Assembly: GCA_963817895.1 (NCBI GenBank)
Contig: CAWFQB010000001.1
Coordinates: 32,001-96,000, forward strand
Direction of reading: 5' to 3'
DNA: 64,000 bases
DNA from: an uncultured Chthonomonadaceae bacterium
GTDB taxonomy: Bacteria > Armatimonadota > Chthonomonadetes > Chthonomonadales > Chthonomonadaceae
A program made the translations under genes and the position numbers. Of the stretch, positions 41,711 to 59,002 are shown one piece after another. The notes beneath the pieces were generated by a model that was not told where the DNA came from, did not search any database, and saw only the letters and a list, made by a program, of their open reading frames with translations. The stretch's first letter is position 1; the number at the start of each line of letters is the position of its first letter.

Positions 41711-42652
41711 ATGTCCAACCAACCACCAACCACCAACCACCAACCACCAATCCTATCCCTACTGGAAACCGAACTGCGCAACCCGCGCACGACGGAACTG
41801 GACACGCTGCCGACGGTCTGCGCTTGTGGAAACGCTTACATGCGGAAAACTATGCGGTTGCGGATGCGGTTGCCGTTGCGCTTCCGATTGTGGCGCAGGT
41901 GGTGGACATTCTGGCCGAGCGTTTGGGGAGTGGCGGACGGTTGTTTTATGTGGGCGCGGGCACGAGCGGGCGATTGGGCGTACTGGATGCCAGCGAATGT
42001 CCGCCCACCTTTGGCGTTTCTCGCGAACTGGTGCAGGGGATTATCGCGGGCGGCGAAACCGCGCTGACAACTTCGATTGAGGGCGCGGAAGACAGTCCCG
42101 ACGTGGGCGCGGCAGACTTGCGGGCGCGCAATATTACGGCAAACGATGTGGTCGTGGGCATTGCCGCCAGTGGCCGGACGCCCTATGTCATTGGCGCATT
42201 GGACGCGGCGCGGCAAATCGGAGCCGCTGCGGTTGCGGTTGTAAACGTTTCGCAGGCGCAAATGCGGCGAACATGCCGACCTGACTATCGCGGCCGTCAC
42301 CGGCCCGGAAGCCCTGACGGGTTCCACGCGCCTGAAAGCGGGCACGGCGCAAAAAATGGTTCTCAATCTGCTGACAACGGCGGCGATGGTGCGGCTGGGC
42401 AAAGTGTACGGCAATCTTATGGTGGACGTGCGGGCGACCAACGTAAAGCTGCGGGATCGCGCCATTCGCATTGTGCAGGCCGCCACCACTGCCGACTACA
42501 ATCAGGCGCAAGCCGCTTTGAACGCCTGCGACTGGCATTGCAAAACCGCCATCGTGATGCTGGAATGTGATCTCAGCGCGTCCGAAGCCACACAGCGCTT
42601 ACAGGAAGCGAACGGTTGGGTACGCGCCGCGCTTGAAGCATGCGACAGATAG
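41711..42652 (+). CDS. murQ: N-acetylmuramic acid 6-phosphate etherase (frameshifted)
   Basis: [37 protein letters not shown] and GNLMVDV; N-terminus carries a (CAACCAC)n array. Confidence 0.95.
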
Positions 42653-51165: not shown

Positions 51166-51250
51166 AGGTTGTTAGGTTGTTAGTTGTTAGGTTGTTAGGA
51201 ACGCGCTTTCCTCACACCTGATTACCTGACAACTAACAACTAACAACCTA
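51166..51250. repeat. Inverted (AGGTTGTT)/(AACAACT) arrays between divergent genes
   Basis: Directly visible; same family as 60161-60283. Confidence 0.75.
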
Positions 51251-51255
51251 ATTCC

Positions 51256-52164
51256 ATGACCTGGATCATTCTCGGAACCGTCGCAACCATTATTTCTACT
51301 ATTGCCTACATCATCACCGCGCTTTATATTCGGGCGGAGTTGAAGGGGCTGGAAAAAGACCGTTATCTGACGGTTACGAATCAGCTCTTCACAACGTGGC
51401 AGAGTACGGAATTTATGCAGGCGCAATTGTGGCTGCTGCATAAATTACAGGAGAGCGATTGGGACGCTTTTGTTGCCGCGCACCGCGCCGACATGGGCGA
51501 ACTGGCGTTTCACCGTGTCGGCTCTTTTTATGACCGGGTGGGTACGCTGATTAAAATGGATCTGGTGAACGAGCAGGAGATTCTCGCCACGATGGGCGGG
51601 TACGCGATTGCCGTATGGCAGAAGATCGGGCCGCTTGTGCAGGAAGCGCGGCAGATTGAGAACTCCGTGCTGTTCCAGAACTACGAGGCGATGCTGCCCG
51701 CCTGTCACGAGTGTTACGTTCCCGCGCTGAAAATTAGTTCCGGGGGCAGTATGGGCCGGAGTATGCCGGTCAACATGTTCATGGAGAAAACGCCGGTTCG
51801 CATCAGCCTGTCGGAACTGCGGCGCAAACAGGAACGCGGGGAACCGCTGACACTGCTGGACGTTCGGCAGGCAAAACAGCAGGTCACGCCCGAAAACCGG
51901 ATACTGCCCAACGCCATTCTCATTCCCCCGGACGAGATCGAAACGCGCTACGGAGAATTGCCCCGCGACAAAGAGGTCGTCGTGTATTGCGCTTGATCGG
52001 ACGAGGCTACGAGCGCCCGTGTGGCGCTCTTCTTACAATCCAACGGCTATACCGCCCGCGCCCTGACCGGCGGCTACGACGCCTGGAAAAACGCGGGGCT
52101 GCCGCTTGTCTCGTTTCCCGCTGCGCAACCGGCTGCGCCGTTGCAGATCACGCCGCGCCTGTAA
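51256..52164 (+). CDS. Membrane-anchored DUF4760-like / rhodanese fusion, putative selenoprotein (UGA 51994-51996)
   Basis: The rhodanese domain continues in frame across TGA: VVYCA-U-SDEATSARVA..ALTGGYDAWKNAGLP. Confidence 0.85.
51997..52032 (+). promoter_or_regulatory. Bacterial SECIS-like stem-loop
   Basis: GAGCGCC-CGTGT-GGCGCTC starting 14 nt after the UGA, with G in the loop. Confidence 0.7.
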
Positions 52165-54065: not shown

Positions 54066-54989
54066 CTACTTCACCCAGGCGTTCCAGAGCAGTTGAAATG
54101 TCAGCACGAAGCCTAATCCAATCACGACGCGCCGGACGTTCTTCTGCCCAATGCGCCGCGCGATTCCCGCGCCCGCGTAGCCCCCGAAAATCGCGCCGCC
54201 TGCCATGAGTCCGGCTGTCGGATAGTCCACAAGATGCTTGAACACGAAAATAAGCGCGGCGATGCCGTTGATAAACAGCGTGAAGATGTTTTTCACGCCG
54301 TTCATCTGGTGAATGTTGGTAAAGCCGAGGAAGCCAAGCGCGGCCAGTGTCAAAATGCCGATTCCCGCGCCGAAGTAACCGCCGTAGATGGCAATGACAA
54401 AGGCAAGCAGGCCGATAGGCAGAGTTAATTTGCGGAACAGAGTGTTTGGCGCGGATGTGGTCGAAGCGGGAGTGGGCGTACTCGCTTCGGTTGGCGTGTT
54501 TGTGGAGGTGGAAGCGGTCAGGGGCGGCGAAGCGGCCTGCGCGGTTGTATCATTGGCTTCCGCGCTGTTTGTCGCTTGTGCCGCGTCCTGTGTGGCCTGC
54601 GCGAGTCGGGCGCGTTGTCGCCGCGAAAGTGGTTCCTGCGCCATAAACAGGGACGTGGCCGCAAGCACCAGAAACGGCACGAGTTTGTCAAACGTTTTGC
54701 TCGGCGTGACAAGCAGCAGAAATGCGCCGATTACCCCGCCAAGCAGTCCTAAAATCGTCAGGGGCAGAATGGCGTCGCGGGTCTGCCCAATCTCTTTGCG
54801 GTAGCCCCACAGACTGCTGAGTTGCCCCGGCCACAGCGCGACCGTGCTGGTGGCGTTGGCGATGATGGCGGGATGGCCCGTCGCGAGCAGGGCGGGAAAT
54901 GTCAGCAGCGTTCCGCCGCCCGCTACGGAGTTGACGGCCCCCGCCGTCATGGAAGCCAGAAACAGTATCAGGGAGTGTTGCCAGTTCAT
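54066..54989 (-). CDS. TauE/SafE (TSUP) family transporter
   Basis: [10 protein letters not shown] and [10 protein letters not shown] motifs; multiple TM segments. Confidence 0.92.
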
Positions 54990-55310: not shown

Positions 55311-56321
55311 ATGGCCGATATTACCATGGAACGACCTGCGGAGGATGACCTCCAGCGCGATGAGTTGGTTGAGTCTTACCGCCTGATGCTTCTCATACGC
55401 CGCCTGGAAGAGTCCGTTTACCGCAAATTCCATGAAGCGAAAATCGGCGGCTATCTGCACCGCTACGATGGCATGGAAGCCCTCGTCGTCGGCGTTATCC
55501 CCCAATTGCAACTGCCCGGCGATTACGTGCTCTGCACCTACCGCGACCACGCCCACGCCCTCGCCTGCGGCACGTCCGCCCGGGCGGTCATGGCCGAACT
55601 GATGGGACGCGCGACCGGCTGCGCGATCGGCAAGGGCGGCTCCATGCACCTGACCGATCCCGAACGAGGCTTTCTGGGCGGCGACGGCATCGTGGGCGGC
55701 CCGGTTCCCGTTTCGCTCGGCGTCGGCTTTGCCCTGAAATACCGCAATACCAAAAACATCTGCGTGTGCTACTTCGGCGACGGCGCGATGAACCAGGGCG
55801 GCGTTCACGAATCGCTCAACATGGTCGGCTTGTACAAACTGCCCGTTCTCTACATTCTGGAAAACAACCAGTACGCGATGGGCACCTCCGTCGAGCGCTC
55901 CACCGGCCAGCCCGATTTTGTGCTGAAAGCCAAAGCGCACGGCATTGCCGGCGAACAAGTGGACGGCATGGACGTTCTTACCGTGCGCGACGCGGCCAAA
56001 CGCGCCCTCGAGCGCATCCGCGAAACGGGCGAGGCCTATTTCCTGGAAATGGACTGCGAGCGCTTTGTCGGACACGGCATCGGCGACGACAACACCAAAG
56101 GCTGGCAGACCTACCGCACCCAGGAGGAGATCGCGCGGCATCAAGGAACTGGACCCGCTCCGGAGACTGCAAGACATGCTCCTCGAAGACGGCTACCTGA
56201 CCCAACAAGACGTGGACAAGTACGAGCAGGAAGTTCACGAAGTGTCGAGGACGCCGTCGCCTTCGCCGAATCCAGCCCCGAACCGCCGCTCGACAGTTTG
56301 TATGAGAATGTATTTTCGTAG
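55311..56321 (+). CDS. pdhA: Pyruvate dehydrogenase E1 alpha (compensating frameshifts near the 3' end)
   Basis: YRDH, GKGGSMH and GDGA..NN TPP-binding motif. Confidence 0.93.
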   Translation: MADITMERPAEDDLQRDELVESYRLMLLIRRLEESVYRKFHEAKIGGYLHRYDGMEALVVGVIPQLQLPGDYVLCTYRDHAHALACGTSARAVMAELMGRATGCAIGKGGSMHLTDPERGFLGGDGIVGGPVPVSLGVGFALKYRNTKNICVCYFGDGAMNQGGVHESLNMVGLYKLPVLYILENNQYAMGTSVERSTGQPDFVLKAKAHGIAGEQVDGMDVLTVRDAAKRALERIRETGEAYFLEMDCERFVGHGIGDDNTKGWQTYRTQEEIARHQGTGPAPETARHAPRRRLPDPTRRGQVRAGSSRSVEDAVAFAESSPEPPLDSLYENVFS

Positions 56322-56432
56322 GTAGATAAGTAGATGGGTAGATAAGTAGGATCATCCTATTACACATCTAATCCGCAATAATGAGGAAGGCTTTCATCTC
56401 GCCTACCTGTCTACTTATCTACTTATCTACCT
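56319..56432. repeat. Inverted (GTAGATAA)n arrays between pdhA and pdhB
   Basis: AGGTAGATAAGTAGAT.. / ..ATCTACTTATCTACCT. Confidence 0.8.
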
Positions 56433-56445
56433 TCTGGAGACTTGA

Positions 56446-57424
56446 ATGTCTGAAATGCGTTATCAGGAGGCGCTTCGACTCGCGATGACCGAGGAGATGG
56501 AGCGCGATGAAGATGTGTTTATTTGTGGGGAAGAGGTCGGGCAGTATCAGGGTACGTACCGCGTGACCGAGGGGATGCTGCAAAAATTCGGGCCGAAGCG
56601 CGTGGTGGATACGCCCATCAGCGAGATCGGCATTGCCGGCCTGGCAACGGGCGCGGCGATGGTCGGGATGCGCCCGGTCGCCGAGTTCATGACGTGGTCG
56701 TTCGCCCTGGAAGCGATGGATCAGCTGGTCAACCACGCCGCCAAAATCACGTACATGTCGGGCGGGCGCATCCAATGCCCCGTCGTGTTTCGCGGCCCGG
56801 CGGGCGTCGGCACGCAGTTGTCCGCGCAGCACTCGCAGAGCCTGGAATCGTGGTACGCGCACACGCCCGGCTTCAAAGTGGTGATGCCCGCCACGCCGGA
56901 AGACGCCAAGGGACTGCTGAAAACCGCCATCCGCGACAACAACCCGATCATCTTCATGGAACACGCGGGACTGTACGGCTTGAAGGGCGAAGTGCCGGAA
57001 GACCCGGAATTTCTGGTTCCGTTCGGCCAGGCCGCTGTGCGGCGCGAAGGCAAGGACATTTCGCTTGTCTCCTATTCGCGCGGCGTCCATCTGTGCCTGA
57101 AAGCGGCGGAAGCGCTGGCGAAAGACAAGATTGACTGCGAAGTGATTGACCTGCGCACCCTCGTTCCGCTCGATATGGATACGGTTGTCACATCCGTTCG
57201 CAAAACCCACCACGCGGTAGTGGCGCAGGAAGAGTGGAAAAACGTCGGCTTCATGGCGGAACTCGCGGCGCGCATCTACGAGCAGGCGTTCGACGAACTG
57301 GACGCGCCCGGTCGAGCGCGTAGGCGGCGCGGACGTGCCCATGCCCTACGCCAAAAACCTGGAACGCGCCGCCATCCCCACCTCCGACGACGTCGTCGCC
57401 GCCGTCAAACGCGCATTGGCATAA
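56446..57424 (+). CDS. pdhB: Pyruvate dehydrogenase E1 beta (frameshift ~57310)
   Basis: DTPISE, AQHSQ and IDLRTL.PLD; alternative frame ends PMPYA.NLE..TAA. Confidence 0.93.
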
Positions 57425-57429
57425 GGAGG

Positions 57430-57542
57430 GTGTTCGGTGTTCGGTGCTCGGTATTCGGTGAAATTGTATCTTCTACCTCATTATTGCAGGTATGGTGAAT
57501 ACAGGGATTTACCGAACACCGAACACCTGAACACCGAATACC
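57430..57542. repeat. Inverted (GGTGTTC)/(GAACACC) arrays between pdhB and pdhC
   Basis: Directly visible. Confidence 0.8.
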
Positions 57543-57558
57543 CACAGAGGTACTCTGC

Positions 57559-58901
57559 ATGGCTGAAATTACGATGCCCAAAATGGGCGATGGAATGGAA
57601 GAAGGCACGATCAACAGTTGGCTGAAAAAGGAGGGCGATCAGGTCAAGGCGGGGGACGCCATTGCCGAAGTCGAAACCGACAAAGCCAACGTGGAGATCG
57701 CCGCTTATGAGACGGGTATGCTGTCCAAAATCATCGTGCAGGTCGGGCAGACGGTTCCCGTCGGCGCGGTAATCGCCGTTATCGGCAGCGCGACGGCGGC
57801 AAGCCAGACGCCCGCGAAAGCCAACGGCGGCAAGCCTGAACCGTCGGTCACTCCTGCTGGCGCCAACAAAGGCGGGGTGAAGAGGGCAGCAATACGCCCC
57901 TGATTCCTACCGGCAACGGCTCCGGCAGTAATGGGCATGGACAGCCTTTACGCCACGCTGACAGCCTCGCCCACCACCGAGCGCGTGAAAGCCTCCCCGC
58001 TGGTTCGCGCAATGGCGAAAGAGATGGGCCTGGAACTGGCGGCGATTTCCGGCACCGGGCCGGGCGGGCGCATCGTGCAGCGCGACGTAATGGCGTACCT
58101 GGAAACCCGCGACGAGCAGACTCTGCTGCGTCCTGCTGCCGCTCCGCCAACGCGCAAGTGGGAACCGCGTCCGTTGCGCCGGTTGCTTCCGCTACCTCAG
58201 ATGCGGACACCACGCAGGAGATCGCCACGTCCAACATGCGCAAGGCGATTGCCAAGCGCACCGTGCAAAGCAAGCAGAACACGCCCCATTTCTACGTCAC
58301 GATGCTGATCGAGATGGATCGCGCGCTGGCCCTGCTCAAAGAACTGAATGCGGACGCGGCGAAGGACGAAAAGTCACGGTCAACGACATCATCGTGAAAG
58401 CCTGCGCCCGCTCGCTCGCCAAAGTGCCGGAAGTGAACGCGACATGGACGCCGGAAAACACCATTCGCCGCTACGCGGAAGCGCATATCGGCATGGCGGT
58501 CGGCATCGACGACGGCCTGATTATCCCGGTCGTGCGCGACTGCCACAAGAAAACCCTGCGCCAAATCTCCGTCGAAGCCAAGCAGTTGATTACCAAAGCC
58601 CGGAACAATCAACTGAAGCCGGAAGAGTATCAGGGCGGCACGTTCAGCGTGTCCAATCTGGGCATGATGGGCGTGGACGAGTTCATCGCCATCATCAACC
58701 CGCCGGAAGCGGCGATTCTCGCCATCGGCGGCATTGCCCGCGAACCCGTTGTGGTCGGCGATGCGCGACGAAATCGTGATTCGCTCCCGCATGAAAGTGA
58801 CGATCAGCGCCGATCACCGCCTGCTCGACGGCGTAGTAGCCGCCCGCTTCCTGCAGGAAGTGAAAAAAGCGCTCGAAGCGCCCTTCTCGCTCCTTTCCTA
58901 A
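57559..58901 (+). CDS. pdhC: Dihydrolipoamide acetyltransferase E2 (frameshifted)
   Basis: Lipoyl ETDKA, ASPL..GTGPGGRI, SNLGM and DHRLLDG motifs. Confidence 0.93.
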
Positions 58902-58926
58902 AATCTGTAACGTTTGTGTTTGCGCG

Positions 58927-58960
58927 AACGCCCGTTCTGATTCATCACAACGGGCGTTTT
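58927..58960 (+). terminator. Terminator after pdhC
   Basis: AACGCCCGTT..AACGGGCGTTTT. Confidence 0.7.
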
Positions 58961-59002
58961 ACCTTTTCTCTTAAGAAGCGCCTATTCTGAGCAGGTAACA
59001 CG

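Follow-up and report, generated by a model that had tools for sequence, protein, structure and literature searches.

Selenoproteins of the rhodanese fold with a C-x-U active-site loop are catalogued as 'form 3' and described by the NCBIfam model NF041203 (rhodanese_LYCAU; Table 1 of PMC13188914; PMC9312934). A UxU variant of a rhodanese-related family has also been reported (PMC1976440). The active-site loops of sulfurtransferase and phosphatase-type rhodaneses follow the patterns Cx4R/T or Cx5R (PMC10135228). Table 1 of PMC13188914 also holds the peroxiredoxin-like (Prx-like) thiol:disulfide oxidoreductase selenoproteins of family PF00578, with a UxxC motif. Fusions of DedA with rhodanese are mentioned in PMC10127716, and a full-text search for DUF4760 found a mention in work on Serratia genomic islands.

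The gene described here lies in a window of 64,000 nucleotides, the whole stretch of DNA that was analysed. The frame starting at ATG 51256 (+ strand) runs for 246 codons, ends in ...KEVVVYCA and meets TGA 51994-51996; 55 further in-frame codons (SDEATSARVALFL...TGGYDAWKNAGLP...) then lead to TAA 52162-52164. With the UGA read as selenocysteine (Sec), the coding sequence (51256..52164, +) gives a product of 302 residues with Sec247. It is the sole DUF4760 match in the source genome. The Pfam Rhodanese match spans the UGA, in agreement with the first-pass annotation, which had the open reading frame halting mid-rhodanese and the frame resuming for 55 codons. As is characteristic of a selenoprotein gene, the in-frame UGA is located within a conserved domain and is followed by conserved coding sequence. 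In the C245-A-U247 motif (51988..51996, +), the Cys occupies the canonical rhodanese catalytic position and the TGA at 51994-51996 is the Sec codon.

The protein shares the fold and the C-x-U loop (VYCAU) of NF041203, which is its best NCBIfam match (E 2.7e-20, residues 175-284). The score of 72.3 bits lies below the cut-off of 115, and the Cys ortholog P0004 scores 75.3 bits. Beyond the 126 positions of that model the Sec-rhodanese protein has 174 extra residues, which hold the membrane anchor, DUF4760 and the CxxC motif. No NCBIfam model cut-off (June 2026) was reached by this protein or by its Prx-like sister. The score against DUF4760 (PF15956) is above cut-off, and an N-terminal hydrophobic helix followed by a helical domain is common to both. 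Distant DUF4760 members are mostly single-domain proteins of 160-200 residues without CxxC, whereas proteins of the present subfamily also carry PxCxxCYVP and a redox domain. The known fusions of rhodanese with membrane domains are precedents, but they have other partner domains. Compared with the UxxC selenoproteins of PF00578, the sister fusion (P0132 family, L076) has an AhpC/TSA domain with CxxC or UxxC and adds the transmembrane (TM)-DUF4760-CxxC module; the window protein has rhodanese instead. TsoB is set apart by its motif, UxxxxU, and the score against its model is 14 bits (cut-off 805). GlpE, PspE, TSTD1 and the Cdc25-type rhodanese phosphatases/arsenate reductases have the same fold and the same first-loop Cys position, and the loop here exceeds that of the aligned sulfurtransferases by two residues. 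The TM-DUF4760-CxxC front half is not in the 2026 catalogue of 119 selenoprotein families, and the term DUF4760 has no occurrence in the main text of PMC13188914. The available part of the deep-Sep text (PMC12013277) mentions neither rhodanese nor DUF4 terms. A literature search of main texts, with supplements and Haft and Tolstoy 2025 outside its scope, gave no title or abstract start on this fusion. The architecture and the swappable-head module appear to be undescribed, the type of the Sec-bearing domain being known.

The N-terminal hydrophobic helix (about residues 2-25; 51259..51330, +) is predicted from Kyte-Doolittle hydropathy and the structural model to be a single membrane anchor. 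The 19-residue hydropathy peak is 2.08 at residue 4, and the best later window reaches 1.03. In the family (121 rows) the mean number of K/R rises from 0 in residues 1-4 to 3.9 in residues 25-39; because these basic residues come after the helix, the positive-inside rule would place the C-terminal part in the cytoplasm. The AlphaFold2 model (pLDDT 88, pTM 0.68) has a helix at residues 2-48 and a helical domain up to about residue 153, followed by a linker and the rhodanese domain. The DUF4760 domain (PF15956; residues 43-146; 51382..51693, +) scores 35.3 bits in Pfam (cut-off 25), so that a helical domain called DUF4760-like in the first-pass annotation can now be placed by profile scan. It is all-helical (pLDDT 90-98) and very highly conserved, with invariant columns; in the family alignment it is more conserved than the rhodanese and has invariant His, Glu, Arg, Trp and Tyr. 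At its end, C150-H-E-C153 (51703..51714, +) forms a CxxC within PxCxxCYVP, identified by its conservation in homologs: C150 is found in 120/120 and C153 in 119/120 of those listed out of 280 matches, and the motif in none of a selected set of 26 distant DUF4760 proteins. Residues 154-175 (51715..51780, +) form a flexible linker (pLDDT under 50), the length of which varies among homologs. Folded alone from a single sequence without an alignment, the N-terminal domain gave a pLDDT of 45.6. When the full-length structure was searched, rhodanese filled the match lists; the sole helical match (Z 9.0) is below the level that the tool treats as meaningful for helical bundles. A profile search of solved structures with the N-terminal domain gave no match under E 0.3. 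The complex prediction for contact between the two domains scored 0.03, which is evidence neither for nor against contact.

The rhodanese-fold domain (residues 185-280; 51808..52095, +; Pfam 48.6 bits, cut-off 22.2) is of the C-x-U type ('form 3', NF041203-like). Foldseek and VIA agree on the fold, with Z 16.6 to 3gk5. In the structural alignment, made with a Cys ortholog, C245 falls at the position of the catalytic Cys in solved rhodaneses; a two-residue insertion relative to 3tp9 and 5ve3 comes next. The active loop, C-A-U-S-D-E-A-T-S, has acidic residues; the positions +5 and +6 from C245 are E250 and A251. The loop has neither the Cx4R/T pattern of classical sulfurtransferases nor the Cx5R pattern of Cdc25-type phosphatases and arsenate reductases. 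The arrangement of TM helix, DUF4760, CHEC motif and C-x-U rhodanese, already proposed from the window by itself, is real and conserved across phyla. We considered whether the fusion could be a frameshift artefact of an error-prone assembly; the single-frame fusion in many independent genomes excludes this. The module also occurs in short, headless forms (P0138, P0144, P0136), and some short forms resemble frameshifts.

The homolog search matched 280 proteins, 120 of which were listed and scored. Among these 120, 104 end at C-x, exactly at the UGA site, 14 have C-x-C, one has C-D-W and one is frameshifted; databases routinely cut this selenoprotein at the UGA. A GTDB scan located 28 loci in Armatimonadota, Planctomycetota, Actinomycetota, Eisenbacteria and Binatota, the nearest being labelled Chthonomonadaceae. 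At the Sec site, the window and 27 orthologous GTDB loci have TGA (21), TGC (4), TGT (2) or TGG (1); the 28th locus, L076, is outside this count and has a different C-terminal domain. The alternation of TGA and Cys that a Sec codon should show in homologs is therefore present (6/28 codons; C-x-C in 14/120 listed proteins). TGA stands at the same codon in 20 further GTDB loci, which represent several phyla, and in 25 of 80 metagenome loci, and a conserved stretch of 38-60 open codons follows in each. Full-length orthologs are patchy, occurring in 8 of the 61 related genomes searched. Of the 28 genomes with a locus, 27 have selA and 26 a SelB wing, with at least one of the two in every genome and selA in all six Cys-form genomes; the background for selA is 47 of 61 relatives. 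In the L070 / P0050 gene the UGA is replaced by UGG (C-D-W), the second Cys of the CxxC is Ser and the SECIS stem is still 6/7 paired; judged from these features it looks like a recent loss of redox sites, with the joint loss of Sec and C153 counting as a single event. L063 is titled 'uncultured archaeon'; the gene groups with a Fimbriimonadaceae sequence, the genome has matches to bacterial-type selA and to the SelB wing, and the entry is possibly mislabelled.

The bacterial SECIS model allows a loop of 3-9 nt with G in the first two loop positions and then G/U, a stem of 4-16 bp, a spacing of 16-37 nt and a minimum free energy of no more than -7.5 (PMC13188914). The hairpin at 52011..52029 (+) has the stem GAGCGCC (52011-52017) / GGCGCTC (52023-52029), 7 bp, with the 5-nt loop CGTGT (CGUGU in the RNA). 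It starts 14 nt after the UGA, its loop is 21 nt past the UGA, its energy is -12.1 kcal/mol, and it agrees with every constraint of the model; the perfect 7-bp stem reported by the first-pass annotation is thus present as described. Against shuffled sequences the energy is no better than chance (z -0.11, -0.95 and +0.02), 22% of 500 synonymous recodings fold equally well, and a loosely similar hairpin follows 754 of the 48,186 TGAs in open frames of the source genome, the loose scan for SECIS plus motif being unspecific. As the hairpin is unremarkable on its own, the support for a SECIS is comparative. The stem keeps 5-7 of its 7 pairs in the 21 TGA genes, 2-4 in the six Cys genes and 6 in the TGG gene. 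Synonymous positions within the element are frozen (Ala GCC 17/17, Val GTG 17/17, Ala GCG 18/18), and Ala and Gly positions near it use four codons. Three stem pairs change on both sides (7 cells) in a compensatory manner. The covariation score was reached by 0/500 shuffles and the number of double-sided pairs by 7/500, with lower values for slid controls; these counts overstate independence because the sequences are related.

The source genome (G000; 7.48 Mb, 81% complete) contains selA, a tRNA-Sec above the Rfam cut-off and a selD that has its own in-frame TGA. It also contains selB, wing domain included, although the assembled gene carries frameshifts; selA, selB, selC and selD were thus all located. 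Two genomes of the same genus have open frames of 641 codons around the SelB wing domain, and an assembly error is thus the likely cause of the break in selB (G000:C14:204962-206852). Several housekeeping genes within the window are also frameshifted; those at 41824-42652 and 55311-58990 we take, from their sequences, to be murQ-like and pyruvate-dehydrogenase-like, and together with selB they indicate an indel-prone assembly. No match to selenouridine synthase exceeded the cut-off in the 81%-complete genome. Of 46 candidates, 9 passed a strict scan, which demanded coding-like sequence on both sides of the TGA together with a consensus SECIS. The five ranked highest are an ORF that is presumably ClpB-like, selD, the Sec-rhodanese gene and two ResA/TlpA-like UxxC proteins. 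The TGA in the ClpB-like ORF (G000:C3:742917, +) is probably a sequencing error. The ResA/TlpA-like genes (G000:C3:2465, -, L157; G000:C6:13945, -, L158) have SECIS-like hairpins. The scan was not exhaustive, having missed the one in-frame TGA of a molybdopterin oxidoreductase match at G000:C4:511435-512865 (+), possibly a Sec formate dehydrogenase. Taken together, comparative genomics indicates that TGA 51994 almost certainly encodes selenocysteine; the 302-residue selenoprotein postulated from the window is supported by the sel machinery, by the Cys and TGA homologs and by a SECIS that is conserved together with the TGA.

The same TM-DUF4760-CxxC module was found fused to an AhpC/TSA peroxiredoxin-like domain (P0132). 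A search with this sister module matched 214 proteins, of which 120 were listed and scored. In these 120, the module CxxC is present in all, and by the pattern used the CxxC of the Prx-like domain is intact in 108; four end at the Prx-like motif and eight are other or cut. L076 (titled Binataceae, of Binatota), L144 and L146 have TGA at the Prx-like motif, which then reads UxxC, and a long open frame follows. This UxxC form of TM-DUF4760-CxxC-AhpC/TSA (L076:4056-5354, +; L144; L146; also P0133, P0317, P0338 and P0346), most relatives of which have Cys, is a second uncatalogued selenoprotein architecture. A script count of the 80 metagenome loci gave 25 Sec-rhodanese, 36 Cys-Prx-like (2 cut) and 2 Sec-Prx-like loci, with 8 that run past the contig end and 9 outside these classes; among the last, one Cys-rhodanese and one Cys-Prx-like locus were recognised by eye. 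A module tree was built from 61 rows, namely the window, the 28 GTDB loci and a hand-picked set of 32 out of the 80 metagenome loci, with near-copies and most cut loci omitted. On it, all Prx-like fusions group in a single clade (100/99) that lies among the Sec-rhodanese fusions. The Cys-rhodanese label changes five times on the tree, and at least three of these changes are forced by well-supported branches. The root is a midpoint root, and the order of events is therefore suggested rather than established. On this tree it is suggested that the rhodanese head was replaced in the sister clade by a Prx-like CxxC/UxxC head on the same platform. The presence of one module on either a rhodanese or a Prx-like domain points to interchangeable redox heads. 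The C-x-U rhodanese is itself mobile: among the matches that stop at C-x are short forms and a fusion to VTT/DedA. The DedA/VTT-like membrane proteins P0207, P0184, P0194 and P0214 end at the rhodanese C-x (VTT match: P0207) and are possibly further Sec fusions.

The gene at 54066-54989 (-) is TauE by Pfam, as the first-pass annotation had it; the conserved link that such a neighbour would imply does not hold, since TauE is near the Sec-rhodanese gene in only 2 of 29 loci, both from a single genus and on the opposite strand, and a functional link to TauE was ruled out. In the 29 loci no neighbour is common to the phyla, and neither sel genes nor sulfur genes are conserved next to it. Within clades, a luciferase-like monooxygenase (13/81 loci) and an adenosine-specific kinase (9/81) recur; an operon conserved across phyla was ruled out, these clade-restricted neighbours looking like lineage synteny. 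Gene context therefore points to no substrate or partner that the phyla would share. Just upstream of the start codon (window 51166-51250) lies a long imperfect palindrome of GTTGTTAG-type units (z -7.7). The source genome holds 133 copies of its first 16-mer, as in a REP-like dispersed repeat; at this position L050, a locus from the same genus, carries another simple repeat.

We tentatively propose that TM-DUF4760-CxxC is a membrane-tethered redox platform with interchangeable Sec/Cys heads, either C-x-U rhodanese or UxxC/CxxC Prx-like. In Armatimonadota, Planctomycetota, Binatota and other lineages it would define two selenoprotein architectures not yet catalogued, and its C-x-U rhodaneses would be selenenylsulfide oxidoreductases, not sulfurtransferases. 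SelB-tRNA(Sec), guided by the hairpin 14 nt downstream, would read UGA 247 as Sec and yield the 302-residue protein; on the sequence evidence this step is close to certain. The single N-terminal helix would anchor the protein in the membrane and leave the remainder in the cytoplasm, a topology we infer to be highly probable. The protein would then act as a membrane-tethered thiol/selenol oxidoreductase. C245-x-U247 would attack an oxidised S or O species (persulfide/polysulfide, disulfide or peroxide) to form a selenenylsulfide, and the tethered head would exchange with C150xxC153, a putative recycling or output site located where the DUF4760 bundle ends. We put the turnover at C-x-U with relay to the CxxC at slightly less than an even chance; the chain as a whole, limited by this last step, comes near to an even chance at best. 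The relay is supported because the module CxxC is kept in both fusion types and is absent from the distant DUF4760 proteins, and because the sole gene with UGA changed to UGG (P0050/L070) has also lost C153. A strict relay is opposed by L081, L083 and P0135, which lack C153 and retain the Sec rhodanese; C153 loss in at least three Sec-rhodanese genes implies that the full CxxC is not always needed.

The alternatives differ in which part of this chain they replace. A true stop or a sequencing error at the UGA, leaving a truncated protein of 246 residues or a Cys protein, is very improbable. The assembly is error-prone (the pyruvate-dehydrogenase-like, murQ-like and selB frameshifts and the in-frame TGA of the ClpB-like ORF) and the hairpin alone is not significant; however, the same codon is TGA in 20 other GTDB loci and 25/80 metagenome loci with an open frame after each, a stop here would cut the rhodanese fold inside its active loop, and the SECIS decays in the Cys forms. 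If the UGA is recoded, the protein might instead be a membrane-bound S/Se carrier, possibly in selenium trafficking, in which C245 accepts a persulfide or perselenide, release is accelerated by Sec247 and the N-terminal domain serves only as an anchor or as a docking site for a partner. We consider this unlikely. The rhodanese fold and the canonical position of its Cys would suit such a role, all 28 module-bearing genomes have selA or a SelB wing (including selA in all six Cys-form genomes), and it is not yet settled which system donates selenium to SelD in vivo, according to PMC13188914. Yet selA is widespread in the lineage anyway (47/61), the loop is without Cx4R/T, conserved sel or sulfur neighbours were not found (TauE, near in 2/29 loci, included), and a Prx-like domain replaces the rhodanese in the sister clade. 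The swap to a Prx-like domain and the non-canonical loop favour thiol-redox chemistry over classical sulfur transfer, so that of the 'Se/S-transfer or redox' role first suggested for the protein the redox half gains and classical sulfur transfer loses ground.

Quite unlikely, in our estimate, is a redox or metal sensor. In such a sensor the CxxC would hold a metal or a regulatory disulfide, and an activity of the DUF4760 bundle (such as oligomerisation, ligand binding or a membrane effector role) would be switched by the Sec or Prx-like head. The stronger conservation of DUF4760 relative to the rhodanese suggests an activity of its own, the short forms P0138, P0144 and P0136 dispense with a head, and there is a weak match to the phage family phrog_2284 (E 0.047; 1.5e-09 for a distant DUF4760 protein). 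Against this, the module has only two Cys for the putative metal site, and some short forms look like frameshifts. PADLOC gave no match for the three subfamily proteins tested, and an anti-phage role was set aside. The swap of redox heads gives a first functional handle on DUF4760, an almost unstudied domain. Two selenoprotein architectures, this one and the Sec-peroxiredoxin-like form, are new relative to the 2026 catalogue, which lists neither. Nature supplies variants with Sec, Cys or Trp at the site, and on the tree Sec and Cys have replaced one another at least three separate times; these variants form a test set for the role of the 'form 3' C-x-U loop and for Sec retention.

Two further observations concern tRNA genes of the source genome. 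Seventeen are arranged in an array on one strand at G000:C4:223181-230044, and ARAGORN called a tRNA with a CUA anticodon at G000:C11:90528-90599.
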